Source of the DNA: Candidatus Omnitrophota bacterium
GTDB lineage: Bacteria; Omnitrophota; Gorgyraeia; Duberdicusellales; 4484-171
Length of the DNA stretch: 64,000 nt
Reading direction: 5' to 3'
Assembly (NCBI GenBank): GCA_041652815.1
Contig: JBAZGN010000002.1
Location: 366,261 to 430,260, forward strand
In this document: positions 41,765 through 58,229 of the stretch, one piece after another
Layout of the letters: every line of letters begins with the position of its first letter
How positions within the stretch are numbered: position 1 is the first letter of the stretch
Position numbers and translations under genes: made by a program
The notes under the pieces: generated by a model
Seen by the model: only the letters and a program-made list of their open reading frames with translations
The model's database searches: none
What the model was told of the DNA's origin: nothing

Positions 41765-41766
41765 AA

Positions 41767-42096: not shown

Positions 42097-42156
42097 TCGA
42101 TAGTCTAACCTAAAGCCTGTTAACTTAATAACCAAAAAACCCACTATCGTTTTTCA

Positions 42157-42185
42157 TTGACAACTATTTCATATCGTAATATAGT
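42157..42185 (+). promoter_or_regulatory. Sigma70-like promoter for the retron (TTGACA, 17 nt, TATAGT)
   Basis: Consensus hexamers read directly from the sequence. Confidence 0.5.
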
Positions 42186-42247
42186 TAGGCAATAAACGAT
42201 TTGGAGTGGTGAACAAATCTATTAGATAATTTTAGATTAAAAATATA

Positions 42248-42398
42248 GGCATCTGCAGAAAGGTATTTAATGTGTCGTTGATCCAGCGACAGTTAACGCA
42301 AAGTTTCGCTTTAGGCCATGTTTACTGCAATGATTTTGAGTTAATGATAAACTGATGATCTGAGTTTTCGGCAAAAGGTAGAATACTCTGCAGATGCC
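42248..42398 (+). ncRNA. Candidate retron msr-msd ncRNA flanked by inverted repeats a1 (ggcatctgcag) and a2 (ctgcagatgcc); a2 overlaps the RT start
   Basis: 11-bp perfect a1/a2 inverted repeat at 42248-42258 and 42388-42398. Internal stem-loops; immediately 5' of a retron-type RT. Confidence 0.6.
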
Positions 42399-43905
42399 AA
42401 TTAATATCGACCTATCATTAAATAGAACGGAAGAAGAGCTAAGGGAATCATTTTTTTTACTGAAAACTTGCGATGATCTAGCATTACTTTTAGAAATACC
42501 TGCCTCAAAATTAACATATTATCTTTACGGCTTGCCTGAAGACAAAAAATACTATAATTTTACAATTCCGAAAAAATCTGGAGAGCAAAGAGTTATTTGT
42601 GCTCCGATAAATGGATTAAAAATTATTCAGCAGAAAATAAGCCAAGTTCTGTTTTGTATTTATAGACCAAAATCATCTGTGAATGGTTTCGTTTCAAGCA
42701 GGAATATTGTTACCAATGCAAAAGTACATTGCAATAAAAAGTTTGTTCTAAATATTGATTTAGAAAACTTTTTTCCATCGATACATTTTGGCCGGATACA
42801 AGGAATGTTTATGGCTTGGCCTTACAACTGCAATCATGAAGTAGCTAAAACATTAGCGCAAATCTGTTGTTGTAACAAAAAACTACCTCAGGGGGCACCG
42901 ACCTCGCCCATTATTTCTAATATGATTTGTAGTAAGATGGATTCAGAACTTCAGGGGTTGGCTAATAATTTCCGGTGTAGGTATACACGATACTCAGATG
43001 ACCTTACTTTTTCCACTTCTTCAGCTAAATTCCCAATAGAATTAGCAAAATATACGTTATTGTCGGGCAACAAAACACTAGTTGTGGGGGGCCATTTAAA
43101 AGAAATTATCGAAAAAAATAATGGGTTTCGAATTAATTACCGTAAAATAAGATTGCAAGAATTCAATCACAGGCAATCTGTAACAGGCATTATTACGAAT
43201 AAATTCCCCAATGTAAAAAGAAAATATGTCAGGCAAATAAGAGCAATGTTGCATGCTTGGGAAAAATTTGGACTAAAAGATGCAGAGCGTGAGTTTCGTC
43301 AAAAATTTGCTAAATGCCGCTGTCCCGCAAAGCAGTTACCATCTTTTCTTGAAGTGCTAAAAGGTAAAATAGGATTTTTAGGCATGGTAAGAGGTAAAGA
43401 TGATCCAATTTATTATTTTTTCAATTATAAATATAAAAATCTTTTGCGCCCCACATATTTAGATAAAAAAGGAGAAATAATGCAAAATAGATACGACGCT
43501 TTCATTAGTTATGCTAGTGAAGACAAAAAAAATTTTGTAATAAATTTAGCTAAAGAACTCATTAGAGAAGGTTTTGACATTTGGTTTGATGAAACTGCGA
43601 TAAAAGTTGGGGATAGTATCAGACGAAAGATAGATGAAGGTCTGACAAGATCAAGGTTCGCTATTGTTATATTTTCGGAAGCTTTTTTCAAAAAGAATTG
43701 GCCACAACATGAATTGTCTGGCTTAGTATCTCTAGAAATGAATGATGGCAGAAAACGTATACTGCCTATTTGGTACAAGATCGATAAGGAATATATAATA
43801 TCAATAAGCCCTCCATTGGCCGATATCCATGCATTAACCTTTCCACAGCAGACAATCGGGCAGATGGTGGATGAATTATCTAAAAAATTAAAAGACAAAA
43901 GCTAA
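42394..43905 (+). CDS. Retron-type reverse transcriptase fused to a C-terminal TIR domain
   Basis: Retron RT hallmarks: Y.F.IPKKSGEQRVI.AP, NAKVH (NAxxH), FFPSI, LPQGAPTSP, YTRYSDDLTFS (YxDD), SVTGIITN (VTG). C-terminus (aa ~370-503) is TIR-like: YDAFISYASEDK...IWFDE...GDSI...SRFAIVIFSE.F..K.W...EL. Confidence 0.85.
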   Translation: MPINIDLSLNRTEEELRESFFLLKTCDDLALLLEIPASKLTYYLYGLPEDKKYYNFTIPKKSGEQRVICAPINGLKIIQQKISQVLFCIYRPKSSVNGFVSSRNIVTNAKVHCNKKFVLNIDLENFFPSIHFGRIQGMFMAWPYNCNHEVAKTLAQICCCNKKLPQGAPTSPIISNMICSKMDSELQGLANNFRCRYTRYSDDLTFSTSSAKFPIELAKYTLLSGNKTLVVGGHLKEIIEKNNGFRINYRKIRLQEFNHRQSVTGIITNKFPNVKRKYVRQIRAMLHAWEKFGLKDAEREFRQKFAKCRCPAKQLPSFLEVLKGKIGFLGMVRGKDDPIYYFFNYKYKNLLRPTYLDKKGEIMQNRYDAFISYASEDKKNFVINLAKELIREGFDIWFDETAIKVGDSIRRKIDEGLTRSRFAIVIFSEAFFKKNWPQHELSGLVSLEMNDGRKRILPIWYKIDKEYIISISPPLADIHALTFPQQTIGQMVDELSKKLKDKS

Positions 43906-44978
43906 TGAATAGTACATTATTAGATTTTAGTGAAGCATTAAAGCAAGCTGTAAATATTGGTGGAAAGAAACAGCTGTTTTTGGGCAACGGATTTAGCATA
44001 GCTTGTTATCCAGGCTTTGAATACGGCACATTATATGAACAAGCTAAAAATAGCGGGCTCTCTAAACATTTAGATGAGCTTTTAAAAAGATATGGTAACA
44101 ATTTTGAAGATGTATTGAAATACCTTGATGAAGGAATGTTTTTGGCGGAGCATTACTATTTAAAAAAAAGTAAAAAAACTAATAGAGACATGGCTCAAGA
44201 TTACAAGGAACTTAAAGAGGCGTTAATAACGACAATAAGTGATAATCACCCTGATTATCCTAGCAGGATATCTAAAAATAAGTTTGAAAGTTGTATAAAA
44301 TTTTTAAGAAATTTTGATGCGGCTTTTACTGTGAATTATGATTTGCTTTTATATTGGGCTTCTTTGCATATTGACGAAAGTAAGGGCGAAGAGTTTCCAT
44401 TCTCTGATGGCTTCGGAAGAGAAGATGATGCTGCGAATCCCGATTGTTCTTTTTCCTATTCGAGCATGAGCTCGAAGCCATATTTATTTTTTCTACACGG
44501 CGCCTTGCATCTTTATACAAAAGACGGACATGTTTGGAAGCGTGTTTGGAATACTACAGGCATCCCAATCATTAAATGCGTTAGAGAAGCTTTTAGCAAA
44601 AAGAGTTACCCATTAGTGGTGACTGAAGGCAAATCTCTTGATAAACTTAAGAAGATTGAAAGTAGTAGCTATTTATCTCAAGCATATAGAAAATTCAAAA
44701 ATATCCAGGGGCATCTTTTTATTTTTGGACATTCGCTTAGTGAACAAGATAATCATATACTTAATGCAATAATTTGCTCAGAAAAATTTAAACTTACGCA
44801 TCTTTGGATAGGAATACATGGAGATTCAAATTCTGCTCATAACAAAAATATAATTGCGAAAGCATCTTTCTTAAGAATGAAAAGAGAAGAGCTCATTCCA
44901 AAAAAACTTAAATCTAAAGGCGAAGGTGAATTAAATATTGGATTTTTCGATAGTGCCTCAGCGCATATTTGGGATTAA
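43905..44978 (+). CDS. SIR2-family (SIR2_2/DHS-like NAD-binding) protein, probable effector
   Basis: LFLGNGFS (GAGxS-like), TVNYDLLL (TTNYDxLLE-like), LHGALH (KLHG-like) and IFGHSLSEQD (GYSl.D) motifs. 1-nt start/stop overlap with the RT-TIR gene. Confidence 0.7.
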   Translation: MNSTLLDFSEALKQAVNIGGKKQLFLGNGFSIACYPGFEYGTLYEQAKNSGLSKHLDELLKRYGNNFEDVLKYLDEGMFLAEHYYLKKSKKTNRDMAQDYKELKEALITTISDNHPDYPSRISKNKFESCIKFLRNFDAAFTVNYDLLLYWASLHIDESKGEEFPFSDGFGREDDAANPDCSFSYSSMSSKPYLFFLHGALHLYTKDGHVWKRVWNTTGIPIIKCVREAFSKKSYPLVVTEGKSLDKLKKIESSSYLSQAYRKFKNIQGHLFIFGHSLSEQDNHILNAIICSEKFKLTHLWIGIHGDSNSAHNKNIIAKASFLRMKREELIPKKLKSKGEGELNIGFFDSASAHIWD

Positions 44979-45199
44979 TCTAAAAAGGTAATTTCAGGGA
45001 CACAATACTTAATTATTTGACCGCACCATTTTTCCACAGTAAAATACCCGCAAGTTCCGGGGCGTAGGGAAACATACAATTTGGAGTTAACATCAAAGCG
45101 TCGGGAAACCGACGCTTTTTAATTAAACCAAAATTAATTATTGTATTCCTGTAATACCGAAATGGGTACAATAGAAGTAATTTTATAAAGAATAAATCA

Positions 45200-46531
45200 A
45201 TGGAACATCAAAGCGCATTAAGAAAGTTTTTAAAAACAATCCTTATCCCACAGCAAAAGGACAGCAAAAAGTCTTTCCTGTCTGGTGGTTTTATGCAAAG
45301 GCGGATTGATGAAAAATTACTGACGCCAGAGCTAAAAAAGTCAGGAAAGATTTTTTTTACTCTTGAAGGTGATGAGTTCAAGGGTTTTGAGAAAATTCAA
45401 CGTAATTTAAGACAAGATATTTCTACCGAATATTTGAAAGATAGAGAATTAGGCGATGCGTTATGGTATCTACTTTGCGATGTTTATTTAAACAAAGAAG
45501 TATATAGAAATTCAGAAAGCCTGAAGAGGCGAATAGAAAAATTTATTCAGCAAATTTGTAAACCGCTAAAAGACTACGAAGTTATATTCGGAGTATCGAA
45601 CCTTTCGATTAAAAAATATCCACTGCAAATATGGGATGTGGCTCTAAACAAGTTGACTAAAGAAGATTTGGAAAGAATGGAACTTAAAATCGGAGGAAAG
45701 TTAAAGGAGTTACTTTTTAAAAAGTTTATTAAGAACGCAGTAGTTATTATTGCTATGCAGGGCAATAATAGTGGTTTTGTTGTTGAAAGAGCTAGAGAAA
45801 AGGCTGAGTTTGCATTAAAGGTATTACAAGTGTATTTTAATGAATTAATTGAAATTCATGACGAAAATCTGCTTTTTGATGTTTCTGACTTCGCTCTTAT
45901 TAGGGGTAAAGAAATAAATAAATGGGCTTGGAGTTGGAAAAGAAAACGATCACCATTTGGTATTAGCATCGGAGATTCTTTATTGGCTTCTATCACGAAA
46001 GCTAATGATCATTTTAAGGTAATTAGTTATCTTAATCCTAATTTTCAATCTAGGGTGCAAAGGGCAATCTATTGGTTGGGTTCTGCCATCGAAGAAGAAG
46101 CTTTTGACCATAAAATGATTCATTTATGTACAGCGCTAGAAAGTTTATTAACCAGTCGGAGTGACAAGAGGAAGGGGGAGGTAATTGCCTATCGTATGGT
46201 AATTCTGAATCATCTGACAGAAGGTAATTTTCCTGATCCTTTTCGTTTGATGTGGTTTTATGAGTTACGTTCCAGAATTGTACATGGATCTGCCATTGGA
46301 CAAACCACTAAATCAGACTATCTTAATTTACAAGATATTACCACAAGGACCTTATTTAGTCTTATTACCCAAATAAAACAGCTTAATGCTAAAGACTATT
46401 TTGACCTTATATCTCAATTAGAAAATGAAGTAAATTTAAAACTAGTTAAATCTTATTTCGAAGGATTTAAGGGAGAGTGGCCACAGTCGATACTACAAAT
46501 TTTAAATGAAAAATTAGAAAAGTTTAAATAA
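45200..46531 (+). CDS. Hypothetical protein with C-terminal HEPN-like R-x4-H motif
   Basis: ELRSRIVHGS in a helical C-terminal region. No confident family. Confidence 0.35.
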   Translation: MEHQSALRKFLKTILIPQQKDSKKSFLSGGFMQRRIDEKLLTPELKKSGKIFFTLEGDEFKGFEKIQRNLRQDISTEYLKDRELGDALWYLLCDVYLNKEVYRNSESLKRRIEKFIQQICKPLKDYEVIFGVSNLSIKKYPLQIWDVALNKLTKEDLERMELKIGGKLKELLFKKFIKNAVVIIAMQGNNSGFVVERAREKAEFALKVLQVYFNELIEIHDENLLFDVSDFALIRGKEINKWAWSWKRKRSPFGISIGDSLLASITKANDHFKVISYLNPNFQSRVQRAIYWLGSAIEEEAFDHKMIHLCTALESLLTSRSDKRKGEVIAYRMVILNHLTEGNFPDPFRLMWFYELRSRIVHGSAIGQTTKSDYLNLQDITTRTLFSLITQIKQLNAKDYFDLISQLENEVNLKLVKSYFEGFKGEWPQSILQILNEKLEKFK

Positions 46532-46607
46532 CCAGTGATAATGGGGTCAGACCTCAAGATTAGAAACTAATCGGGTCAGGCCTCACCCTTAGCAGGGAGA
46601 GACCCTT

Positions 46608-46760
46608 CGACTCGCTTCGCTCGCTCAGGGTTAATTCGCACTATCATTTTTCCTGCGCCACTATTGGCTTGGAAAAATGATGTGCTCATTAGATTTCACA
46701 ACCGCCGGTTTTTAGTTAACCTAAATCCTACCGCGTAGGTGGGCTTTAGGTTGATATTAC
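46608..46760. repeat. ~150-bp cassette-junction module (cgctcagggttaattcg...ccattattggcttggaaaaatg...ttaacctaaatccNaccgcgtaggtgg hairpin)
   Basis: Near-identical copy at 48972-49140; partial copies at 47200-47230 and 53045-53085. Confidence 0.8.
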
Positions 46761-46766
46761 TGATTA

Positions 46767-47222
46767 TTGAAGATGAGCAAAGATATGATTGAACAAAGAA
46801 GAATAGTGTTTCCCGTCAAAGGCAACGACGCCAAATGTTTGGTTCCTTTTGTCCAATCTCTTGTCCAAAAAATTTATACACTCATTTCGCAGGAATATTT
46901 AAACAAATATAAAATTCAGTTAAAAGGGGATAATGATCCTAAAATTGTGGCATCAGATATTTTTATACAATTCGATAAGAAAATTTCTATTAGAATTAAT
47001 TTTTTCGCGCGGGAAAAAGACATTAACACGTTTATAGCCGGCGTTGTTATTGAGAAAAGTTTATTGGGATTTTTTTCACGAGTTGCAACTGATGACGCGC
47101 AAAGATTTTCGGAAATTATTTACAATAAAATTGTCAATATAATAGAAGCCGAAACCGGTTTACGTGGCTGGACGCATGAAGAGGCAGGGCAAAGATTAAA
47201 AAACCTAAATCCCACCGCGTAG
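46767..47222 (+). CDS. Hypothetical protein
   Basis: ORF between junction modules. Its last codons lie in the cctaaatcccaccgcgtagg hairpin. Confidence 0.4.
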   Translation: MKMSKDMIEQRRIVFPVKGNDAKCLVPFVQSLVQKIYTLISQEYLNKYKIQLKGDNDPKIVASDIFIQFDKKISIRINFFAREKDINTFIAGVVIEKSLLGFFSRVATDDAQRFSEIIYNKIVNIIEAETGLRGWTHEEAGQRLKNLNPTA

Positions 47223-47272
47223 GTAGGGAAAAATGTTTTTCTTGTCATTATATACAGTATTGGTAAAATAAA

Positions 47273-48130
47273 TTGATGCGATTTTATTTTTTCGCAATAC
47301 TTTTATTTTCCGGTTGCGCAGCTACAACGCCTCAAGCTACTTCGAATGATAGCGCAAATACTAATGTTGATGTGTTGCGTTTCGAACAAGCCAAAGCTTT
47401 ATCTGCTTCTGATATTCCTGATATCAATATTTCCCGCCTTTCTAAAGGAAGCAATGTAAAAATAAAACACATACAGGATGGTTTAGGCAGAACTTATTTT
47501 ACGGTAAAAACAGTGAAGGATGTAAAAGCCGCAGATAATGGCAAGATTTATGTTATTGATTCTGTAACGGAAGGAAGAACTTATACATTTTCAGAGGATT
47601 CAGCATCGTTACGCAAGGTAGTTTCGCCGTATGAAAATATACAACCGCTGGCAGATTTTAAAGACCCGTCAATGTCAGGCATGCCAGCAACTTTTATAAA
47701 TGCTCTTGGAGCCGGCGGCATCGGAATTGCCTTAATCCCGGTTACCCGCTCACAGGAGAGAGAAAGGAATAAAGAAGCAGGAGACCATGCAAGAGGAATG
47801 CGGGTAGAAAGAAAAATCACAGATTTTAAATTTGTATCAGATGAGGTTTTAAAGATTGCGGATAAGGATATTTTATGTAAGGTCTATCAAATTCATAGCC
47901 TTACCCGGCAGACAATGCCTGCTACTAAAACAATACCTTCCACGTTGCTCATAATTAATACTTCTGAGCGGATATGGATTTCCGAAGACGTTCCTTTTGG
48001 CATAGCCAAAAGAGAAAGCACCCAAACATTACATATGTCTCTGGCAGGCGGCGGCCGTTCGCGCAGGGATATTATACCTTCAGCGCAAACAACCCGCGAA
48101 ACTAACGAAGTTGTGGAATTCAGTTATTAA
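47273..48130 (+). CDS. Hypothetical lipoprotein
   Basis: Signal peptide with LFSGC lipobox. Confidence 0.45.
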   Translation: MMRFYFFAILLFSGCAATTPQATSNDSANTNVDVLRFEQAKALSASDIPDINISRLSKGSNVKIKHIQDGLGRTYFTVKTVKDVKAADNGKIYVIDSVTEGRTYTFSEDSASLRKVVSPYENIQPLADFKDPSMSGMPATFINALGAGGIGIALIPVTRSQERERNKEAGDHARGMRVERKITDFKFVSDEVLKIADKDILCKVYQIHSLTRQTMPATKTIPSTLLIINTSERIWISEDVPFGIAKRESTQTLHMSLAGGGRSRRDIIPSAQTTRETNEVVEFSY

Positions 48131-48416
48131 AAGTTCAATAACTCCGATGGCACAATGGAATTCCGGGGGCACAATACTTAATCATTTGACCACACTTTTT
48201 TCCGGCAGTGAAGCTTTCAAGCGAAACCCTGCCTCGAACCAGAATGAATTCGGTTCAGGGCAGCCCTAAATCGACCTTCGGTCTGGTTTGGCGGCTGAAC
48301 CGTACAGAACCTATACTGGTTCTGGACTGGTTCAGGGGTAAAATACCAGCAAGTTCACGGGTGTTAGTTTTTTATTCAATAATCAAAAGTTAACATTAGC
48401 CATATAATAAAAAAAT

Positions 48417-48878
48417 ATGAATACAAAAGTTTTCAAAATAATAGTCCTGAATCTAGTTGGTGTTATTATCGTTTATCTTCTTTTAATGGCCGGTTGTAGG
48501 GCTTTAATTATGAGAAGCTTCCAGCCCGATGCAAAAGCTATGTATAGGCATTATTTTTCAACCCCGATAGAAAAAGTAAAAGGGCTGCGTAGCGGCGGAA
48601 TGGCTTGGCTGGATAATCCGGTTTGCATAAAGTTTCGGAGCAAAGAAACAATAATTTTAAAAGACCAGAATTTATATTCTCCTGCTGATTCATCAGTGCC
48701 TCGCAGGTTTTTTTTGAGGGAATACCCTAATGATAAAATCATCTTAAATGATGTGGAAAACCTGGTATGTATTCGCTATGACAAGAAAGTAAAGGCCAGC
48801 GATAACAGGCAATACTCTTTATTGCATTGGCTGTTATATAATAAAAAGACAGGAAGCTATTATTTTCTTATTGAATAA
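48417..48878 (+). CDS. Hypothetical membrane-anchored protein
   Basis: N-terminal TM helix; ORF only. Confidence 0.4.
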   Translation: MNTKVFKIIVLNLVGVIIVYLLLMAGCRALIMRSFQPDAKAMYRHYFSTPIEKVKGLRSGGMAWLDNPVCIKFRSKETIILKDQNLYSPADSSVPRRFFLREYPNDKIILNDVENLVCIRYDKKVKASDNRQYSLLHWLLYNKKTGSYYFLIE

Positions 48879-48971
48879 CACTATCAATAAAGATTTGATA
48901 AATTTGGTTCCATCTTGGCCACTCCATCCCGTTCGGCTTCCTTCGGCTTGATTCGGTAAGGCTCACCACAA

Positions 48972-49140
48972 GTCGCTCAGGGTTAATTCGTGCTAACATT
49001 TTTCTTGCCCGCTTCGCCAAGCGAAGCGAGGCGAGCGCCATTATTGGCTTGAAAAATGTTGCACTCATTAATTTCCCGCAGTAAAATACCCACAACTTTC
49101 AAATTAACCTAAATCCCACCGCGTAGGTGGAATTTAAGGG
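48972..49140. repeat. Cassette-junction module, second copy
   Basis: See 46608-46760. Confidence 0.8.
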
Positions 49141-49208
49141 AAGATGACAGATAAAATATGATTTTTGCATTTGGCATGAAAAATAGCTTCTAAAAATAGG
49201 AGCCAAAA

Positions 49209-50126
49209 ATGGACTATTTCGAAGTGCCTCGCCCGCCAAAAGAAGGATTTTGTTCTGATAAAAACTGCCCCTGCCATGATACAGTAATTCTTCCCGGAGA
49301 AGGCTATTTGTATATCAGCCAGAAGCTGATTGATTTTCGCCGAGATTGTTTTACTTATGCCCAGCTGCAACTTAAATTAAAACAGATGGCCGAGTCAGAC
49401 CCGCTTAATAAGCTCGGCGCCGGCGGATTTGTGCGATTCTTGCCCCAGGGGACAACCAGCCCGATAATGATGTGTAAGCAAGCGGCAATGTTAAGGAGTC
49501 TTGACTTGGAAGTAGCCAGTGCCGATGCCAAATATTGGTGGAAAACCGGATTGGTGCCGTTCAGGGTAACGCCCTTGGTAGGAGGCGAGTTGAAAAATTC
49601 CATCTATGTTGAGCCTTCTGGTGCCGTGAGAGAAGAAACTAAAGTAAATCCATCGGCCATTAAAGGAAAGATATATCGCAATAGAAAATATGCATTTTCT
49701 TTGAATCTATCCGATGGCTGGATGGCAGAAAGAAAACTCCTGGATTTCGTATGCAATCCCAAAGAGGCAACCTTTAAATACAAAAAAGAAAATTTATCAT
49801 TATCTTTACATGTTTGCGTCACGCCTGTAGATAAAAAGACAATTTTTAACAAAGAGCATGAAGAGCACTCATTATTAAAAACTTTAGAAAAAACGGTTTC
49901 GCAGATGGAGCGAAAATCTAATCCTTTTTTATTGATAGATAAGACAATTGATGGTGAAAAAAATACTGTATGGGGAGAGTTCCACTCCATCTCCATTGAT
50001 AATAGTATTGAATTATTCGGAATCATCCATGCCCTGCATAATGGTTTATATTACATTATAAAATATTTTGGTGACTTGGCATTAGAGAATGAAGTCAAAA
50101 AAATATTATCTACTTTTCATTTTTGA
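49209..50126 (+). CDS. Hypothetical protein
   Basis: ORF only, 305 aa. Confidence 0.4.
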   Translation: MDYFEVPRPPKEGFCSDKNCPCHDTVILPGEGYLYISQKLIDFRRDCFTYAQLQLKLKQMAESDPLNKLGAGGFVRFLPQGTTSPIMMCKQAAMLRSLDLEVASADAKYWWKTGLVPFRVTPLVGGELKNSIYVEPSGAVREETKVNPSAIKGKIYRNRKYAFSLNLSDGWMAERKLLDFVCNPKEATFKYKKENLSLSLHVCVTPVDKKTIFNKEHEEHSLLKTLEKTVSQMERKSNPFLLIDKTIDGEKNTVWGEFHSISIDNSIELFGIIHALHNGLYYIIKYFGDLALENEVKKILSTFHF

Positions 50127-50450
50127 GATATCGCGGAAGGATAACGGGGCCAAGACCCAACATTAGAGTTTAGGATGCTTATGTCCGGCTGCCTATATAC
50201 TGATAAATTTTCTACGAAAATTTATCAGAGCAGCACGGACACGGCTGCTTCGCAGCCGGGGTTAGGCCTCGCCCGCCATTTATTATTTAACCCACTCCAC
50301 TCCGTAAGTGATATAGATTAAAGAGGGGAGGCGGCGATAAGGAGGTAAGGTTTAGTTAAAATATATCATATGATTATTATAACAAAGTTAGAAATTCTAA
50401 CTTGACATACTTTCCTACTATATGGTATACTTCTAATGGAGGTGAAAACA

Positions 50451-50708
50451 ATGACAGTAACGCGTCTTAAAACGAAAAATCAGATTACTATTCCGCAAAG
50501 CCTTGTGAAGCGCTTACATTTGAAAAAAGGGGAGCTTTTTGCCATAGATATAGAGGATAACTATCTAAGGCTTATGCCTGTTGAAATTGCCCCAAAATAT
50601 AGCGCAAAAGATTTAAAAAAGATAGACCGTATAGTTAAGAAAGAAAAAGGCAAAGCGAAATCTTTAAAATCAGGAAAAGAATTTGGAGAATACATTACAA
50701 AGATATAG
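50451..50708 (+). CDS. AbrB/MazE/SpoVT-family antitoxin
   Basis: TKNQITIPQSLVKRLHLKKGELF swapped-hairpin motif. Internal Met start chosen (the ORF opens at 50436). Confidence 0.65.
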   Translation: MTVTRLKTKNQITIPQSLVKRLHLKKGELFAIDIEDNYLRLMPVEIAPKYSAKDLKKIDRIVKKEKGKAKSLKSGKEFGEYITKI

Positions 50709-50710
50709 TA

Positions 50711-50992
50711 ATGAGAATAGTAAAAATTCTTCCTTCCTTTGAACGCTCACTTAAAAAGCTTTCTTCTCGCGATAAAGATAAATTAAAGGAAACCCTTGTG
50801 CAATTTAATGATTTTCTTGTCTCTGGTGTTTTTCCCGTTGGCCTGGGTTTTAAAAAGATAAACCATGACAAATATGAATTTAGGGTGGATATCCGCATAA
50901 GAGTGATTGTAAAAATTGAAAAAGAATATGTTTATCTTGTGCTTGCTGGCAGTCATGATAGGGTAAAACGTTATCTTCGCGAATATCGTTAG
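50711..50992 (+). CDS. RelE/ParE-family type II toxin
   Basis: C-terminal ...RIRVIVKIEKEYVYLVLAGSHD.V pattern; 93 aa; 3 nt after the antitoxin. Confidence 0.55.
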   Translation: MRIVKILPSFERSLKKLSSRDKDKLKETLVQFNDFLVSGVFPVGLGFKKINHDKYEFRVDIRIRVIVKIEKEYVYLVLAGSHDRVKRYLREYR

Positions 50993-51100
50993 AGAGGATA
51001 ACGGGATCAGGCCTTCAGATGTCAGATGAAACCCCGTCCACCCCGGAGGTGGACGCTGATTGTTGTTGATGGTGCTTGAAATTGAGGAGGTAGTTTAGCA

Positions 51101-51670
51101 ATGGAGAAAAATATTCGACAAATAAACCTTTCTGAAAGAGACCGGGCAATTCGCATGAAACTTGCCGTTGGGTTAGTTATTGTTTTTGTTTCTCTAGCCG
51201 TTTGGATGGGCAGTGGTATTTATCGACAAGCAGAAAATGGCGTTAGTTCTTCTCAATGGCCATCTACCGAAGGCTATATTGTTTCATCCGAAATTACTCG
51301 GCACGCAAATGGTAGTAGCCGGCGATTGCGTGCAACGCGATACTCGCCTAATATATACTATACTTATAAAATCAATGGAATCGAATATGAAGGCCGCCGT
51401 CTTACTTTTATGAATAGCTCAGGAGGGAAGAGCTGGGCTGAGCAAAAAGTCAATAATTATCCTGCTGGTAAGCGGGTAGATGTATATTATAAACCGCAAG
51501 ATTTAACAATTTCCGTATTGGAACCCGGGGCTACTATGAAATGGCTTATCCTGTCAAGCGGTGCAATATTAATTTTCTGTGTTGTTTTTTTGCTGATAGC
51601 ATATGTTTGTTACAGGGATTATCAAAAAGTCAAGAAAGCTCGTTTCGAAGGAGGAAGGTATTATTTCTAA
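51101..51670 (+). CDS. DUF3592-like membrane protein
   Basis: N-terminal TM, conserved YYTYKINGIEYEG..L and NYPAGKRVDVYY core, C-terminal TM. Confidence 0.55.
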   Translation: MEKNIRQINLSERDRAIRMKLAVGLVIVFVSLAVWMGSGIYRQAENGVSSSQWPSTEGYIVSSEITRHANGSSRRLRATRYSPNIYYTYKINGIEYEGRRLTFMNSSGGKSWAEQKVNNYPAGKRVDVYYKPQDLTISVLEPGATMKWLILSSGAILIFCVVFLLIAYVCYRDYQKVKKARFEGGRYYF

Positions 51671-51796
51671 AAATAGAGGAATTCCGGGGCACAATATTTA
51701 ATATTTTTTTTACGCTTATTAACCTAAAAACCTACAATCTAATAACCAAAATCATTGACCGCTGTATTTTCCCGCAGTAGAATAATTTCAATTCTG

Positions 51797-52741
51797 ATGA
51801 CGCAGCCACAAATATTAAGCCGGGATAAGATAGAAGAGCTGAATAGCGCGGTTTGTTTTTTTACTTTAAAAAGCAGGCGCAAAATAGCTTATTACGAATA
51901 CGGCGATCCAGCCGGAAAGCCCATATTTTTTTGCCACGGAACCGGTTCGCACATTCACGTCATGCTTCTGCACGATTCTGCCAGGCAGCACGGATATAGA
52001 ATAATTGTGCCTGATAGGCCAGGGGTCGGGTTATCCGATTTTGCTCCGCGGAGAAAACTCCTTGACGGGGCAGACGACATCGGACTTCTCGCCGACAAAT
52101 TAGGCATAGACAGATTTGGGGTGATGGGCATTTCAGGGGGCGGGCCGACCATACTTGCCTGCGCATACCGTTTACAAGAGAGGCTTAATTTCGTGGTGGA
52201 CCTTGCCGGCGCAGTCCCGCTTTATAATGATCCCGAAGCGCTAAAAAAGCTCGGCACGGTGGATAGATTTTACGCAAAGTTAGGCAGCCGCCTGCCATTA
52301 TTTTTATTTCAGATACCCTTCGCTTTGCTTGGGCTTCAGCAGAAGATGCTTAAAAGCCCGCAAGCTTTCGTCAACATGATGCGCTCAAGTATGTGCAAGG
52401 CAGATATGGAATTATTTATGATTCCAGAAATGCAATATGTTTTTATGCGCGATTTTCAGGAGCTTTTCCGCCAGGGTTCCCGCGGGCCGGCTCTTGATGC
52501 CCAGTTAATATATCATCCGTGGGATTTTGATATCAGTAAGATTAACACGCACGTAGAAATACGCCAGGGCAGCGAAGACCGCTGGATACCGCCATATTTT
52601 AGCCAGTATTTGGCAAAGACACTGCCGGACGCGACGCTTAACACGATAGAAGGGCAGGGCCATTTCTATCATATGGCTTACGCTGATGCTACGTTGTCTT
52701 TTGTAGGCCAGATAGCTAAGGATAATGGGAGCAAATCTTGA
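51797..52741 (+). CDS. Alpha/beta hydrolase fold protein
   Basis: HGTGSH and GISGGG (GxSxG) motifs. Internal Met start chosen (the ORF opens at 51755). Confidence 0.7.
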   Translation: MTQPQILSRDKIEELNSAVCFFTLKSRRKIAYYEYGDPAGKPIFFCHGTGSHIHVMLLHDSARQHGYRIIVPDRPGVGLSDFAPRRKLLDGADDIGLLADKLGIDRFGVMGISGGGPTILACAYRLQERLNFVVDLAGAVPLYNDPEALKKLGTVDRFYAKLGSRLPLFLFQIPFALLGLQQKMLKSPQAFVNMMRSSMCKADMELFMIPEMQYVFMRDFQELFRQGSRGPALDAQLIYHPWDFDISKINTHVEIRQGSEDRWIPPYFSQYLAKTLPDATLNTIEGQGHFYHMAYADATLSFVGQIAKDNGSKS

Positions 52742-52858
52742 AACTTAAATTTAGGATAATTGTGTCCGGCTGCGGACATACTACGAAAATCCCATGCTTT
52801 TCAAGTAGAATATTTTCATAGTTTTTATAATTTTAACCTTTTAATAGAGGAGGTCAGC

Positions 52859-52984
52859 ATGGCAGTAAAGAAAGTGGGAGAAAAGTATCGGTGTAATGTT
52901 TGCGGTAATGAAGTTACTGTAACCAAAGTTGGCGGTGGGGAGCTGGTTTGTTGCAAAAAACCGATGGAAAAAATTGACGGATAG
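52859..52984 (+). CDS. Desulforedoxin (rubredoxin-like Fe(Cys)4 protein)
   Basis: KYRCNVCGNEVTVTKVGGGELVCC..PME matches desulforedoxin. Internal Met start with AGGAGG RBS; the ORF opens at 52760. Confidence 0.75.
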   Translation: MAVKKVGEKYRCNVCGNEVTVTKVGGGELVCCKKPMEKIDG

Positions 52985-53135
52985 GAGTAAAATGTATAAT
53001 AGGGTTAAGCCTTCAGATGCCAGATAAATAAAAGGCCACGTTTTGCTGGCGCCTAACGGGTTAATTCACGCTATCATTTTTCTACGTGCAGGGAGCACTT
53101 GGAAAATTGCAAGTTTCATTAAATGGAGGGTCAAA

Positions 53136-53342
53136 ATGCATACAGGCAAGATTAAGAAATTGGTTCTCGAAAAAGGGTTTGGTTTCATAACTGATAGTGA
53201 CGGCACGGATGTATTTTTCCATAAGAATAATCTTGTGGGTATTACATTTGAAAGTTTAACCGGCGGGGAAGAAGTTACTTTTGAAATTGAACAAAATCCC
53301 AAAGGTAAACGTGCAATTAACGTGAGCCTTGCGAGTAAATAG
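53136..53342 (+). CDS. Cold-shock domain protein
   Basis: GKIKKLVLEKGFGFIT...DVFFH...G...VTFEIE..PKGKRAINV. Internal Met start; the ORF opens at 53043. Confidence 0.8.
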   Translation: MHTGKIKKLVLEKGFGFITDSDGTDVFFHKNNLVGITFESLTGGEEVTFEIEQNPKGKRAINVSLASK

Positions 53343-53460
53343 CAGGAAAGAAATCGAAGAAAAATTGAAATTCAGGATAATTATTCCTGGCTGCTTTGCA
53401 GCCAGGAATAATTATTTCATGCCCCGATGTTACTTATAAAGAGGGCATAGGTTAAATTTT

Positions 53461-53907
53461 ATGTTTTATTTTATTCTTGTTTTCGGCCTTGTTTGGGTTT
53501 TTGGAATGCTGTATGTCATAATAATGGGCCTGCGTAGTAAGAGCTGGCCTCTAACAACAGGGAAAATCGTTTCTTCCGAAGTCCGTAAACAAGTCAGTCG
53601 TGCTCGCGGCAACCGTCCCAATCCAGCTTCATATCAACCATATGTGCTTTATGAATACTCTGTTGGCGGCAATCGAATGCAGTCAGAGCAATTAGCTTTT
53701 GGCGGAAGAATGCAGGTTTCTGAAAAAAGAGCGCAAAAAATAATTGAAAACTACCCGGCAGGCAAAAACATACCAGTTTACTATAACCCTCAAAAACATA
53801 CCCAGTCAGTGCTGATAGCCGGTAATGTTATCGGGGTCTATATAATGCTTGCGTTTGGATTTGTATTTATTGCTCTTGGCGTAGCAGGCATTGCGCTTAA
53901 GTGGTAA
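53461..53907 (+). CDS. DUF3592-like membrane protein, paralog
   Basis: Same architecture and NYPAGKNIPVYYNP core as 51101-51670. Confidence 0.55.
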   Translation: MFYFILVFGLVWVFGMLYVIIMGLRSKSWPLTTGKIVSSEVRKQVSRARGNRPNPASYQPYVLYEYSVGGNRMQSEQLAFGGRMQVSEKRAQKIIENYPAGKNIPVYYNPQKHTQSVLIAGNVIGVYIMLAFGFVFIALGVAGIALKW

Positions 53908-53985
53908 TAACGAGATAACAGGATTAGTTTTCGCTCACCTCAGGCTAATTGCATAGAATATCTTAAATTGAGGAGGTAATCAATA

Positions 53986-54798
53986 ATGGCTACAGCTATC
54001 TATTATTTTTCCGCAACCGGTAATTCTCTCACCGTAGCTAAAGACCTTGCAGCAAGATTCGATAATGTGCAAATTATTCCTATAGCTAAAGCGCTTAAAA
54101 ATAATTTTGAGCAGCCTTTTGATGTTGTCGGCATTGTTTATCCTGTATATATGTTTGGCCTTCCGCTCATTGTCGCAGATTTCCTGAAACAAATAAAAAT
54201 AAAACCGCAGGCTTATATTTTTGCAGTTGCCACTTTAGGCGGCCTGCCGGGTTTGGCACATACACAAACCAAAGAAATACTTGAGAGTCGGGGGTTTTTG
54301 CTTTCTGCCGCTTTTTCCGTACTTATGCCGGGAAATTACACTCCGCTCTATGGAGCAATTGATAAAGAAAAACAGGAAGAAATGTTTAAAAAAGAGAAAT
54401 TACGCATAAACACAATTGTCGCAGCGGTTAAAGAGCAAAAGCGCGGCATAATGGAAGAAAAGCCGTTCCTTCTTAACTTTCTTTTTAATAAATTATTGTA
54501 TAAAGGCGGCACAAAACAAATTCCTTTAAGCGGAAGAAATTTTTGGGTGACAGAAGCTTGCACCAAATGCGGGCTTTGTGCTAAAGTCTGCCCGGTAGAA
54601 AATATTGAGCTGGTTGATAGCAAGCCCCAATGGCTTACTCATTGCCAGCATTGTATGGCGTGCCTTCAGTGGTGCCCGGTTGAGGCAATCCAGTATAAGA
54701 AATCAACTCTGGGCAGGAAGCGTTACCGGCATCCAGCTATAACCGTGCAGGAAATTGAAAATCAAAGGGTTAGCTCGGTAGAAGGAGACAGTAAATGA
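53986..54798 (+). CDS. EFR1-family ferredoxin (flavodoxin-like domain + 2x[4Fe-4S])
   Basis: IYYFSATGNS N-terminus and CTKCGLCAKVCP...C..C..C..CP. Confidence 0.7.
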   Translation: MATAIYYFSATGNSLTVAKDLAARFDNVQIIPIAKALKNNFEQPFDVVGIVYPVYMFGLPLIVADFLKQIKIKPQAYIFAVATLGGLPGLAHTQTKEILESRGFLLSAAFSVLMPGNYTPLYGAIDKEKQEEMFKKEKLRINTIVAAVKEQKRGIMEEKPFLLNFLFNKLLYKGGTKQIPLSGRNFWVTEACTKCGLCAKVCPVENIELVDSKPQWLTHCQHCMACLQWCPVEAIQYKKSTLGRKRYRHPAITVQEIENQRVSSVEGDSK

Positions 54799-56048
54799 AG
54801 AAAATTTTTAAAAGCAAAATTCAAATAGGCATAGGGATTATGGTTTTTGCGTTTATCTTCAGTCTTTTTTATTCTACCCAAATTTTTTCCGAGGAAATTC
54901 CCTTTAAGCGTTTGGATAAATTTTCCAAACGCATGCACCAGCTGCGCGGGGAGGCAGTAGGGTATCCGGTTAATCAAAATACAGACCTTAAGGAATTTTA
55001 TCAGTGGTATATTGATTCAAGGCTCTATGATGTTTCGATGAACAATGTCGGCGACCCCCAGAAAGCAAGCATCTATAGTATGAACACCCATGAGTTTGAA
55101 AATGAGTTGATTGATTTCTTTGCGCCGTTGTATGGATTTTCCAAAGATGAAGCCTGGGGAATAGTCACGATGAGCGGTACTGACGGCAATATGCACGGGA
55201 TGTATTTCGGGGTAAAGCAGCTTTTGAGCCAGACAAAAATGCTTCCGATTTGCTATGTTTCTGAAGAAGCGCACTATTCCATAAAGAAACTGGCAGATCT
55301 CCAAAACCTGGAGCTACGTTTAATCAAGGCTGACGAATCCGGGAAGATGATTGTAAGTGAATTTGAAAAAGCGCTTGACCCAACAAAACCGGCACTGGTG
55401 GTTATTGCCATGGGTACTACTTTTAAGGGCGCAATCGATGACCAGGCGGCGATTGACGCGGTGATTCGTAAAAAGAAGCCGATTGCCGTCTACAGGCATG
55501 TTGATGCGGCTTTATTCGGCGGGTATTTACCATTTACAGAAAACAAAGATTTGGTAAACCGTAAGGTGTTTTATTTTGATTCAATTGCCGTAAGCGGCCA
55601 CAAATTCTTCGGGTTTGATGAGCCGATGGGTGTTTTTATCACTACGAAAAAGACACTTAGCCAGATTAACCCTTTTAACGTGCCCTATCTTAATCAGGCC
55701 GTACCTACAATCACCTGTTCCCGCAATGCGCTTTCTGCCTTAAAATTCTGGTGGAAGGTTAAGAAAACCGGGATGCAGGGGTTTATAACGCAGGCAAAGG
55801 AAATTCTGGCGAATGCCAAATATTTAGAAGCTGAACTGCAAAAAATCAACTGTCCGGCTTGGCGGGGAGAATATTCCAATACTGTCTATTTTAAACGGCC
55901 AATTCAAACCGTGATGAGGAAATACGACCTTGCCCCTGAATTTGATTCTCGTTTGGGTGGCAATTTGGCACATATAGTGGTTATGCAGAATGTAAGCCGT
56001 AAAGTTATAGATGAAATTGTTAGTGATGTAAAAACTAAAATGCAATAA
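54795..56048 (+). CDS. PLP-dependent group II amino-acid decarboxylase (histidine-decarboxylase-like) with N-terminal TM/signal
   Basis: SGHKFFG lysine motif in a fold-type I context. Confidence 0.6.
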   Translation: MKKIFKSKIQIGIGIMVFAFIFSLFYSTQIFSEEIPFKRLDKFSKRMHQLRGEAVGYPVNQNTDLKEFYQWYIDSRLYDVSMNNVGDPQKASIYSMNTHEFENELIDFFAPLYGFSKDEAWGIVTMSGTDGNMHGMYFGVKQLLSQTKMLPICYVSEEAHYSIKKLADLQNLELRLIKADESGKMIVSEFEKALDPTKPALVVIAMGTTFKGAIDDQAAIDAVIRKKKPIAVYRHVDAALFGGYLPFTENKDLVNRKVFYFDSIAVSGHKFFGFDEPMGVFITTKKTLSQINPFNVPYLNQAVPTITCSRNALSALKFWWKVKKTGMQGFITQAKEILANAKYLEAELQKINCPAWRGEYSNTVYFKRPIQTVMRKYDLAPEFDSRLGGNLAHIVVMQNVSRKVIDEIVSDVKTKMQ

Positions 56049-56187
56049 AAGATCCCAAAATCATCGACCATCAAATTTTTGCGCAGTAAAATATTTCTAA
56101 TTGCGAGGCGTTACAGGCATTCATACAATCAGGAGTTGACATCAATGTTTAATGCTAGGTGATTTTGTTTATAAACAACCAGGAGGC

Positions 56188-56733
56188 ATGATGAGAAAGA
56201 AACCTTATCTATATATATTATTATTGATTGGACATTTTCTGTGGTGTGTTGCTATAACAAATAATTATGCTAGCGCTGAAGAAAAAACTTTCCTTGCGGA
56301 AGAATCTCTGGATCCCGAAGGAACCAGTTGTATGAAATTTCATGGATTTTATAACCCATCAAAGGAGGTTTCACCGGATGCCTGCAGGCAGAAAAACGAA
56401 GTGTATACATCCAATCCAAACAAAACAATTACTTTCAAATGGGATTGTCCAATAAAAGATGGGATTCCTTCCTTTTACTGGTTTTGTTGTTCATGTAAGG
56501 ACAATACAAGTTATACCGTTCCCGTTCCTTTTCCAATACCAGGCGTTCCTTGTCCTGTTTTGCCGGTATCCTGTAAGTTAGAAGATAATCCAAATAATGA
56601 TTACATTTCAGCATCTTGCACATTAACGGTTGATCCAAACCATGAATATGCTTATTCGGTAGCTTGCCCATTAAAAGCAGGCGTCATGAGTGGGTGTGGC
56701 GATAAATTGCGAGTTATAAAATACAAAAAGTAA
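56188..56733 (+). CDS. Cysteine-rich secreted protein
   Basis: Signal peptide and many Cys. An alternative start at 56146 lies inside the junction module. Confidence 0.4.
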   Translation: MMRKKPYLYILLLIGHFLWCVAITNNYASAEEKTFLAEESLDPEGTSCMKFHGFYNPSKEVSPDACRQKNEVYTSNPNKTITFKWDCPIKDGIPSFYWFCCSCKDNTSYTVPVPFPIPGVPCPVLPVSCKLEDNPNNDYISASCTLTVDPNHEYAYSVACPLKAGVMSGCGDKLRVIKYKK

Positions 56734-56955
56734 ATAGAAAAAAGGATAGTGGGGTTAGGTTTTCAGGTGTCAGACATATTCCAAAATTCCACCTTGACCA
56801 CCCAATTTCTGTGGAGTAAAATATTTCCAATTGTGAAGCGTTAAGTGCATTCATACAATTAGGAGTTAGCATCAAAGCGTTGGGCAACCAGCGCTTTTTG
56901 ATTATAAGTAGATAATAAGATTAAGCTGCTCCGCAGCCAAAATAACGAGGGAAGA

Positions 56956-57486
56956 ATGCGTTTGAAACAGAAAATATTGGATAAATTTAAAACGTATTGG
57001 GTAAATGTTTTTTACATAACTTTATTTTTTAGTATTTTCACTGATTACAGAAGATTGATATTGGCTCATTATCAAATTTATTATGGAGCGTATGGTATCA
57101 GCTTTATTAAGGGGTTAGTGTTAGCTAAGGTTATTCTGGTGGCAGAGCATTTTCACCTTGGGCGGGGATTCGAAGATATGTCCCTTATCGTCCCAACTCT
57201 ATATAAGTCGTTTATGTTTACTATCTGTGTTGCCATTTTAAGCATAATTGAATTTATGGTTCGCGGTTTTCTAAAAGCAGAAGGCTTAATTAAAGTATCC
57301 GATGTATTTATAAAATGCTTCTCATATGAATGGTTTTCCGGCATGTTGATAGTATTCGCGGCTTTTATTCCTTTTTTTGGAATCAGGGAATTAGGAAGGG
57401 TGTTGGGAAGCGGAAAAATAAGCGAGCTTTTTTTCCATAGGAAGATAGCTGCCGGGTCAAATCTTTCCAAGGATGAATCGCAATAG
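56956..57486 (+). CDS. Hypothetical membrane protein
   Basis: ORF only. Confidence 0.4.
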   Translation: MRLKQKILDKFKTYWVNVFYITLFFSIFTDYRRLILAHYQIYYGAYGISFIKGLVLAKVILVAEHFHLGRGFEDMSLIVPTLYKSFMFTICVAILSIIEFMVRGFLKAEGLIKVSDVFIKCFSYEWFSGMLIVFAAFIPFFGIRELGRVLGSGKISELFFHRKIAAGSNLSKDESQ

Positions 57487-58056: not shown

Positions 58057-58229
58057 TCCCTTTGCCAGAAATCCACGGGCACGCCTGCCTTCGGCAGTCA
58101 GGCCCGTGCGGGCTCCAGATTAAAAAATTCTCTTCCATAATTTTTTGACGCTTAACGGGGATAATTCGAATAAAATAATTTTTCTGGCAGGAAGCCTGAA
58201 AGATAGCAAGTCTCATTAGGAGGTGGGGA

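Follow-up and report, generated by a model that had tools for sequence, protein, structure and literature searches.

Mosaic intergenic modules with expression-signal-like parts in a variable neighbourhood of a Candidatus Omnitrophota genome

In a stretch of 64,000 nucleotides (nt) from a Candidatus Omnitrophota bacterium (assembly GCA_041652815.1, contig JBAZGN010000002.1, positions 366,261 to 430,260 of the forward strand), which is here called the window, there is a region (44,979-56,955, with one further element at 58,057-58,229) where nearly every space between genes contains repeated modules. We consider it probable, at about 0.65, that these are lineage-specific mosaic intergenic modules, akin to mobile promoters and to bacterial interspersed mosaic elements (BIMEs), in a variable neighbourhood with a defence hotspot at its 5' end. 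The region would then consist mostly of single-gene transcription units, with spacers built from a lineage-specific kit of modules that resemble expression signals: a promoter (M1), a leader with terminator (M2), a hairpin of the 5' untranslated region (5' UTR; E), a hairpin like the repetitive extragenic palindromic (REP) sequences (M3b), and two modules, A and M5, placed after stop codons. Such modules would supply incoming genes with ready-made expression signals, and they would also supply the homology by which ordinary homologous recombination swaps and reorders genes. The latter role is suggested by the independent assortment of the modules, by their conservation above the coding level and by the shuffled order of the genes around them. 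The same kit stands beside non-homologous genes in this genome as well as in its congeners, which seems most economically explained as promoter propagation.

The repeats had been pointed out in a preliminary description, and all five module families reported there were recovered by repeat search, self-BLAST and reading of the sequence, no more than about 15 nt from the positions first given. Shared modules occur, as had been stated, in nearly all spacers (12 of the 14 between 44,979 and 56,955) and in differing combinations; the spacer 47,223-47,272 contains the tail of one module only, and the spacer 53,908-53,985 contains no convincing module. The number of genes called in the range is 15, instead of the at least 19 open reading frames (ORFs) claimed. 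The third of the reported modules is present at its three sites, but as two separable modules (E and M3b) rather than one, the AACCTAAATCCCACCGCGTAGGTGG hairpin being absent at 53,051; the leader of the second module is found at three sites out of three, but its hairpin follows only the first and the third copy. Modules overlap the 3' ends of ORFs in two cases (c2 and the alpha/beta hydrolase in Table 1), in line with the earlier reading. The gene identities were also given correctly, but the sole match behind the toxin-antitoxin call is a weak one to AbrB/MazE. The family extends beyond the range first described, with a further full copy upstream of the AsmA-like gene.

In the search space of 64 kb, the self-BLAST matches have E-values from 3.5e-6 to 5e-5. 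The motif GGGWYAATTCR occurs four times when 0.31 occurrences are expected, a count that is reached in none of 100 shuffled sequences. Three matches to TTGACC-N17-TARAAT exist in the 64 kb (45,017, 51,755 and 56,794), all of them within the region, where a TCGACC variant is found at 56,064, and the matches of a covariance model for leader and terminator in the window are likewise confined to the module region. All module copies detected by BLAST have the same orientation as the genes, which is the plus strand in the window and in the related locus L090 and the minus strand in the related locus L096, and the modules assort independently across the junctions. In five further assemblies (from ENA ERZ27247363, Logan SRR18595300 and SRR8542065, and JGI 3300014205) the overlapping sequence is 100% identical to and colinear with the window, one 16-kb contig among them covering 39,209-54,452. 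From this it follows that the arrangement is not an artefact of assembly. Variation in the presence or absence of individual cassettes, which the preliminary description had proposed to look for among related genomes, was not seen among these five assemblies of the same organism.

Module M1 consists of an upstream box (GGGGCACAATACTTAAT) followed by TTGACC-N17-TARAAT and is promoter-like, of sigma-70 type. Ten copies, taken from four genomes, agree in the hexamers and in the 17-nt distance between them but vary in the sequence of the spacer, and this is the pattern that is expected of a real sigma-70-type promoter. One copy of M1 has its -35 and -10 hexamers parted by an insert of about 140 nt (48,196-48,337), which has a folding energy of -62 kcal/mol (z = -4.7) and folds better than all of 200 shuffled sequences; the loci that were read contain no second copy of this insert.

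Module M2 has a leader with the conserved stretch CATACAATTNGGAGTTAACATCAAAG, which in most copies is followed by an A-tract, a hairpin and a T-run. The only structure that RNAalifold predicts is the terminator hairpin, in which four of ten pairs have compensatory double changes. M1 and M2 together are predicted to give an RNA of about 65-75 nt whose 5' part is conserved and unstructured and which ends in an intrinsic terminator, located upstream of an ORF in the same orientation; they could be a unit like a small RNA or a terminator-gated leader, i.e., an attenuator. An alternative antiterminator pairing was hinted at, by eye, in some copies of M2, but was not recovered by RNAalifold, and a reading of the leader as an ANTAR dual hexaloop, with a gene for a GAF-ANTAR protein nearby, was dropped by eye when the loop features did not fit. 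In having a promoter, a short conserved RNA, a terminator and then a gene, and in placing the same leader before unrelated operons, the unit resembles type III toxin-antitoxin loci, attenuators and the ops/JUMPstart or LoaP leaders; unlike these, it has no tandem RNA repeats, no predicted antiterminator and no Rfam match. A bolder reading is that the modules are functional joints by which genes are exchanged slot by slot in this lineage, with the conserved non-coding units (promoter with leader and terminator, hairpins, and a G-run head past stop codons) acting as portable homology or as recombinase sites; a second novelty would then be a family of terminator-gated leaders in M1-M2. This reading we regard as decidedly unlikely.

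Module E (also called M3a) consists of GGGWYAATTCG, a hairpin and CTCATTR, and in five of eight copies CTCATTR abuts GGAGG and the start codon. The hairpin of the E-core covaries over the eight copies, with compensatory changes in nine of 18 pairs and a score that is reached in none of 500 shuffles. Readings of E as a sigma-54 promoter or as an extended -10 element were dropped by eye, as their spacing did not fit. In L008, the closest of the PEBP loci searched (see below), full-length E elements are located at 3,840-4,016, 4,995-5,176 and 8,765-8,926, directly upstream of glnB (P-II), exbB and glnN, respectively. They have a long outer helix with compensatory changes (CCCGAAACAC/GTGTTTCGGG versus CCGAAGTGC/GCACTTCGG), which is followed by the E-core hairpin and CTCATTGGGAGG. 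The E-core stem at junction I2 of the window is nearly identical to L008 3,929-4,003. The full-length E element is a candidate structured 5' UTR, and its counterparts in the window are without an Rfam match: Rfam 15 gave no match at gathering score in the window, and between 41.5 and 58 kb, at E-values up to 5, only matches at chance level.

Module A has the motif aGGATAAYGGGG-TCAGGCC-TTCAGATG. It starts 0-25 nt past stop codons, begins twice inside the end of an ORF, and is usually followed by a hairpin, which is either M5 or a G+C-rich stem. The arrangement at junction I7 is found also in L090 (3,110-3,175), as A followed by CCACCCCGGAGGTG. M3b, finally, is a short imperfect extragenic palindrome that is combined with other motifs in mosaics, and this is what defines elements of the REP/BIME type. 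It occurs on at least four contigs of the metagenome Ga0265297, where it is at times clustered, and on one 90-kb contig of another metagenome; a scan for the exact pattern in 185,579 species genomes, a collection that does not contain the source genome, gave no match. The modules as a whole are like the BIME and REP elements of Escherichia coli, the neisserial intergenic mosaic elements (NIMEs) and Correia elements of Neisseria, and the pneumococcal BOX elements, in that a few motifs are recombined, imperfect palindromes fold as RNA, gene ends are preferred and the distribution is lineage-specific. They differ from all of these by their strict co-direction with genes, by their complete promoter-plus-terminator units and by an apparently low copy number.

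Putative mobile promoters have been defined as sequences of 50-100 nt that are at least 80% identical and located upstream of non-homologous genes (Matus-Garcia, Nijveen and van Passel 2012, PMC3488235). Several pairs of modules have these properties. Junctions I13 and I14 are 83% identical over 80 nt (56,066-56,145 and 56,796-56,875), the sequences 45,073-45,125 and 56,852-56,904 are 87% identical over 53 nt, and the definition applies also to I1 and its counterpart in L096, the genes downstream being unrelated in each case. The likeness to the elements of PMC3488235 thus includes a length of 50-110 nt, an identity of at least 80%, a location upstream of non-homologous genes and hexamers like those of -35 and -10 boxes. 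The difference is that the promoter is here one of several co-assorting modules, and that the copies seen are concentrated in one variable neighbourhood.

To see the modules in other genomes, 80 Omnitrophota loci around homologues of the PEBP gene that precedes the region (1.13 Mb) were searched, and more contigs were obtained via homologues of the AsmA-like gene and via a metagenome scan with M3b. Among the 80 PEBP loci only L008, where ExbB is 97% identical in amino acid (aa) sequence, has any module, namely three E elements ahead of glnB, exbB and glnN and a fourth that is truncated. In L008 the PEBP gene is followed by a porin gene and glnN, and the retron (see below) and the array are absent. 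In several more distant genomes the PEBP gene adjoins homologues of AsmA, msrAB, the MBL-rhodanese gene or the desulforedoxin gene. L090 and L091, where AsmA is 78% identical (aa), contain M1, M2, M3b and A in their spacers, with 92-100% identity over 20-44 nt, and there the modules flank genes for a Fic protein, a 273-aa protein, an OmpA-like protein, an omptin, a 150-aa protein, an orthologue of c16, and OprB. In L089 an M1+M2 unit is located upstream of AsmA, with a hairpin that is nearly identical to that of I14 at 56,871. L096, found by the M3b scan, has an array on the minus strand around rSAM-like/HATPase, REase-like and SIR2-like genes. Its sequence 3,864-3,755 is 85.6% identical over 111 nt to 44,990-45,099 of I1, although the genes on either side differ; in both genomes the unit (M1a-M1b-M2) constitutes the junction after the first slot, which is the second junction after a gltD-like gene.

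The identity of modules between species is accordingly 85.6% over 111 nt, and 94-100% over 25-35 nt, while that of orthologous coding DNA is 75-82%. On these alignments the modules match or exceed the genes in conservation, and they appear not to be bound to any particular gene. The order of the genes varies as well. The orthologue of the flavodoxin/4Fe-4S protein (Fld-Fer4, 82% aa) comes behind AsmA in L090 and ahead of c16 in L089, so that Fld-Fer4 and c16 are arranged differently around AsmA from one genome to the next. The gene c16 is 67% identical (aa) to L090 6,415-6,909, where the unit of promoter and leader is kept upstream (L090 6,262-6,375). Homologues of the desulforedoxin adjoin PEBP or AsmA on other Omnitrophota contigs. 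With homologues on related contigs, Fld-Fer4, c16 and the desulforedoxin do not obviously stand out as foreign. Two more distant AsmA loci, L092 and L093, were also read for synteny; their compact arrangements, with different neighbours, were uninformative. The M2 leader model has no match in L092 or L093, and BLAST with the modules has none in L092.

Several points weigh against the explanation of the region as a mosaic of mobile expression signals. The functions of promoter, terminator and leader are predictions. The terminator is located about 70 nt past the promoter and upstream of the gene, so that expression would need read-through or a second promoter. The census of modules covers about 100 kb from the host organism and its closest relatives. 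The excess of module identity over coding identity could come from recent transfer between co-occurring species, instead of from constraint, and the organism of the window and that of L091 do co-occur in sample ERZ27247363. In addition, the head of A after stop codons (GGAWWNCGGGG-like) would be left unexplained by a kit of expression signals.

The modules could alternatively be selfish, non-autonomous elements, like miniature inverted-repeat transposable elements (MITEs), REP sequences or REPINs, that were inserted independently in the spacers and have no role in expression. The genome does have such elements, in the form of perfect palindromes of 150 nt (35,002, 39,452 and 40,335) and palindromes of GTTACG repeats (18,778 and 41,617). 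One of the promoters is split by a structured insert, the spread of M3b over contigs of one metagenome is in accordance with selfish propagation, and between hycI and exbB two species have different elements. The M1, M2, A and E units have, however, neither terminal inverted repeats nor target duplications, a scan for inverted repeats having shown internal hairpins only, and without terminal inverted repeats around the units the MITE reading fails. Selfish insertion would moreover leave several regularities without a reason: orientation is strictly gene-co-directional, positions are fixed relative to stop and start codons, the promoter hexamers are kept more than their spacer, and five of the eight copies of E stop exactly at the ribosome-binding site. 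This alternative is therefore rather unlikely.

A different possibility is that the modules serve as joints in a site-specific cassette system of an undescribed kind, where a recombinase encoded elsewhere cuts and rejoins the G-run head GGAWWNCGGGG. Motifs like this head were found by reading at 10 of the 14 junctions, at the 5' end of A and of M1a and within about 25 nt of most stop codons, and the strict form GGAWW-N1-3-GGGG occurs at four of those junctions and at one site outside the region. In L096 the modules look as if they were joined at CGGGG (..GTTCTGGGGATAACGGGGTCAGCC). Independent assortment of modules is expected from such a system, and I1 is closer to the L096 junction ahead of a different gene than to its own paralogues in the window. 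But neither in the 64 kb nor in the roughly 3 kb to either side was a recombinase gene found, the sequence of the head is degenerate, and CGGGG turns up 10 times inside coding sequences of the region too. Among the loci compared, no gene was found to have the same ends in two different contexts, and the five assemblies contain no excision or insertion variants. As homologous recombination at modules of 30-110 nt would give the same pattern without any new enzyme, the chance that such a system operates here is slight.

A cassette system of a known kind was proposed in the preliminary description, according to which the region resembles a sedentary integron-type array, and this proposal is not supported. 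It would mean that the junctions are attC sites and that the genes between them are promoterless cassettes, captured by an IntI encoded elsewhere, as in a sedentary array or in a cluster of attC sites lacking an integrase, known as a CALIN (Cury et al. 2016). Integron cassettes typically lack promoters and are expressed from the promoter Pc, and attC sites are 57-141 nt long. The region is like an integron array in having small, unrelated, co-oriented genes, a putative toxin-antitoxin pair and repeated junctions, and in a gene content that varies between related genomes. Both strands were scanned for R'' (RYYYAAC) and R' (GTTRRRY) boxes at a distance of 50-145 nt, the R and L boxes having to be complementary, at rules passed by an attC control sequence (aadA7). 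In the region there were no sites at the stringency passed by the control, and at two relaxed settings there were 8 and 10 when dinucleotide-shuffled sequence gives 6.8 and 13, respectively. The failure to see canonical attC boxes by eye is thereby borne out, and so is the statement that the window has no integrase: Pfam found no integrase, recombinase or transposase domain in the ORFs of the window, nor in the genes called in about 3 kb beyond each end, and no tyrosine recombinase was among them.

The junctions themselves are also unlike those of integrons. As mosaics they vary both in make-up and in length (50-330 nt), where attC would be a single type of site of 57-141 nt, and several of them contain promoter-like modules. 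The genes are co-oriented, as cassettes would be, but they are not promoterless, as four junctions have intact promoter-like hexamer pairs (three with TTGACC and one with TCGACC), a fifth pair is split by the insert, and the putative toxin-antitoxin pair has its own. The GTT in GGGTTAATTCG is not kept in the copies of L008, where GGGACAATTCG is found instead. Conserved genes, too, have these modules upstream: AsmA in the window as well as in L089, and glnB, glnN and exbB in L008. Some of the would-be cassettes are conserved genes of the lineage. That the region is nevertheless a sedentary integron array or a CALIN is extremely improbable, and the integron interpretation is rejected.

The other suggestion made at the outset, a modular defence hotspot, is correct for the 5' part, which is a defence slot, and in so far as the module kit flanks different genes in congeners; most genes between 51 and 57 kb, however, are not defence genes. 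Ahead of the slot is what remains of a gltD-like gene, its last 55 or so codons with the stop. This relic is 80% identical in nucleotide sequence to the ends of the intact gltD-like genes of L090 and L096, which directly precede the arrays there, and it is no copy of the gltD-type gene that the window has at 22,459-23,922. It appears to mark the ancestral left edge of the variable neighbourhood, and a truncated relic that is unrelated to the resident gltD-type gene points to past rearrangement or to import of the neighbourhood together with its flank. In the window the relic is followed by an apparently complete type XII retron, and the segment of retron and c1 has a G+C content of 0.34, as compared to 0.39 for the window. 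The gltD-like gene is followed by a Fic protein (PDC-S04/SoFic) in L090, by an N6/N4 DNA methyltransferase in L104, and in L096 by rSAM-like, HATPase and cyclase-like genes and then REase-like and SIR2-like genes, all of these L096 assignments being weak. In these four genomes there is a conserved gltD-like flank (in the window the relic only) with a different defence-type gene behind it, as is expected of a defence hotspot. The neighbourhood resembles defence islands and hotspots, as well as the minimal mobile elements of Neisseria, in its conserved flank, its genome-specific defence-type gene and the plausibility of recombination in the flank. It differs from them in that only the first one or two slots are recognisable as defence, and in that the inner anchors are non-coding modules and not genes.

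Table 1. Features of the module region and of the defence slot in the window, with the sites of each module type
Feature	Position	Strand	Description
gltD-like relic	41,908-42,096	+	3' end, about 55 codons and stop
Retron slot	42,158-44,978	+	type XII, apparently complete; promoter-like TTGACA-17-TATAGT (by eye)
Retron non-coding region	a1 42,248; a2 42,388		about 210 nt; exact 11-nt inverted repeats GGCATCTGCAG (a1) and CTGCAGATGCC (a2), the latter overlapping the reverse transcriptase (RT) start
RT-TIR gene	42,394-43,905	+	PADLOC RT-TIR_XII 3.4e-148; Pfam RVT_1+TIR_2
DUF4917/PDC-S21 gene	43,905-44,978	+	PDC-S21 2e-96; start overlaps RT stop
I1	44,985-45,125	+	post-stop head/upstream box 44,985-45,016; promoter-like TTGACC-17-TAAAAT 45,017-45,045
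I1, 3' part	45,066-45,125	+	leader 45,066-45,100; terminator-like hairpin and T-run 45,091-45,125; model score 94.9 bits
c1	45,200-46,531	+	443 aa; R-x4-H motif (ELRSRIVHG)
I2	46,536-46,754	+	two A copies 46,536-46,605; E-core GGGTTAATTCG..CTCATTAG 46,621-46,705; M3b 46,716-46,754
c2, c3	46,767-48,130	+	151 and 285 aa; partial M3b 47,199-47,227 overlaps c2 3' end
I4	48,154-48,344	+	head and upstream box; -35 TTGACC 48,186-48,191; insert about 48,196-48,337; -10 TAAAAT 48,339-48,344
c4	48,417-48,878	+	153 aa
I5	48,973-49,140	+	E-core 48,973-49,070; M1 -10 half 49,071-49,096; M3b 49,102-49,140
c5	49,209-50,126	+	305 aa
I6	50,135-50,285	+	A 50,135-50,167; long M5 50,168-50,250; second, A-like GGGGTTAGGCC 50,252-50,285
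Separate promoter-like site	50,402-50,431	+	TTGACA-18-TATACT, ahead of the putative toxin-antitoxin pair
Putative toxin-antitoxin pair	50,436-50,992	+	AbrB/MazE-like, 85-90 aa (weak match), and 93-aa protein
I7	50,993-51,055	+	A and G+C-rich terminator-like hairpin
DUF3592 paralogue a	51,101-51,670	+	Pfam 9e-16
I8	51,675-51,783	+	head/upstream box 51,675-51,705; AACCTA-rich insert; promoter-like TTGACC-17-TAGAAT 51,755-51,783
Alpha/beta hydrolase	51,797-52,741	+	last codons (52,716-52,741) overlap A (52,716-52,747)
I9	52,748-52,782	+	M5 hairpin
Desulforedoxin	52,859-52,984	+	41 aa; Pfam 2e-16
I10	52,994-53,135	+	A 52,994-53,028; E-core into cold-shock ribosome-binding site 53,051-53,135
Cold-shock protein	53,136-53,342	+	
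M5-like hairpin	53,362-53,417	+	perfect
DUF3592 paralogue b	53,461-53,907	+	
Fld-Fer4 and decarboxylase	53,986-56,048	+	flavodoxin/4Fe-4S protein and pyridoxal phosphate (PLP)-dependent decarboxylase, overlapping genes
I13	56,064-56,150	+	promoter-like TCGACC-17-TAAAAT and leader, without terminator, into c15; 29.4 bits
c15	56,191-56,733	+	180-193 aa
I14	56,741-56,903	+	A 56,741-56,778; promoter-like TTGACC-17-TAAAAT 56,794-56,822
I14, 3' part	56,845-56,903	+	leader 56,845-56,880; terminator-like hairpin 56,871-56,903; 82 bits
c16	56,956-57,486	+	176 aa; hydrophobic N-terminal region
Full E element	58,057-58,229	+	upstream of AsmA-like gene; A/T-run hairpin, GGGGATAATTCG, second hairpin, CTCATTAGGAGG abutting start codon
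M1, sites	44,985-45,045; 51,675-51,705 with 51,755-51,783; 56,064-56,092; 56,794-56,822	+	promoter-like, sigma-70 type
M1, interrupted	48,154-48,191; -10 at 48,339-48,344	+	structured insert of about 140 nt
M1, -10 half	49,071-49,096	+	
M2 leader	45,066-45,100; 56,115-56,150; 56,845-56,880	+	CATACAATTNGGAGTTRRCATCAA
E (M3a)	46,621; 48,973; 53,051	+	TCGCTCAGGGTTAATTCG and hairpin
M3b	46,716; 49,102; incomplete 47,199	+	AACCTAAATCCCACCGCGTAGGTGG hairpin, about 35 nt, REP-like
A	46,536; 50,135; 50,993; 52,716; 52,994; 56,741	+	GGATAAYGGGG..TCAGATG
M5	50,168; 52,748; weaker 53,362	+	TTTAGGAT..GTCCGGCTGC hairpins

For c1 to c5, c15 and c16 there are no family matches in PADLOC, NCBIfam or Pfam, and the 93-aa partner of the AbrB/MazE-like protein is also without a match to a family. 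Judged from its N-terminal region, c16 is probably membrane-bound.

The window has a G+C content of 39% and nearly all of its genes on the plus strand, and its closest relatives are all, by title, Candidatus Omnitrophota. The first 25 kb are occupied by housekeeping genes (grpE, dnaK, dnaJ, accD, queuosine synthesis, fumarase, efp, RNase PH, the gltD-type gene and gdh), after which come glnA on the minus strand, the GAF-ANTAR regulator (27,349-28,137), an Mbh/Ech-type hydrogenase (28.6-39.4 kb), exbBD and the PEBP gene (41,095-41,616), and then the module region. On its 3' side follow a DUF5666 gene, the AsmA-like gene (58,230-59,042), a cupin gene, msrAB and the MBL-rhodanese gene. The non-coding share is 21% in the module region, 11% upstream and 4% downstream, and the spacers are longer in the module region (Mann-Whitney p = 0.012). 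A scan of the window for tRNA and tmRNA genes as candidate integration targets found none.

Some further features of the window were observed. The glutamine synthetase (25,401-26,936, minus strand), encoded by the sole sizeable gene on that strand, has an N-terminal HTH_17 domain (Pfam 8e-7), an unusual fusion. Amid the genes for hydrogenase membrane subunits (NuoK-like and NuoA-like) there is a 96-aa ORF with a GIY-YIG nuclease domain (34,377-34,667), which may be a free-standing insertion in the operon of the homing-endonuclease type. The 3' part of the AsmA-like gene has an exact tandem duplication of 33 nt (58,922-58,987), by which the peptide AADKAGKTATQ is repeated, and the strain from ENA (L006) has two nucleotide differences within these repeats. 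The near-perfect palindrome of about 150 nt, with repeats of the type AATAACCAA, has three copies (35,002-35,154, 39,452-39,604 and 40,335-40,469; 81-96% identical), placed within the hydrogenase operon and on both sides of exbB; between hycI and exbB of L008 an E element takes the place of this palindrome. Palindromes with GTTACG(A/G)NG units in both arms are located at 18,778-18,827 (after efp), at 41,617-41,760 (after the PEBP gene) and at L008 4,360-4,470 (after glnB). A spacer repeat of 56 nt, with ACGCGAATATTCGCGAATT palindromes, occurs at 4,567-4,622, on the 3' side of dnaJ, and at 6,273-6,327, across the 3' end of a DUF1015 gene (stop at 6,294), the two copies being 87.5% identical.

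With the integron a false lead is removed, and the position downstream of the gltD-like gene becomes a handle for the mining of new defence systems in this lineage. The modules provide a candidate promoter consensus, candidate terminators and a candidate 5'-UTR hairpin in an uncultured phylum that lacks genetics, and the kit could aid gene calling, the prediction of transcription units and the heterologous expression of Omnitrophota genes. If M1-M2 is indeed a new family of terminator-gated leaders, it would control potentially toxic genes, and if the modules mediate exchange, they would exemplify how non-coding repeats organise a variable locus. If the modules are joints of slot-by-slot exchange, which is the decidedly unlikely reading given above, congeneric cells could swap genes for defence and for the cell envelope behind fixed signals, and in this way arrive at an outcome like that of integrons with neither IntI nor attC.

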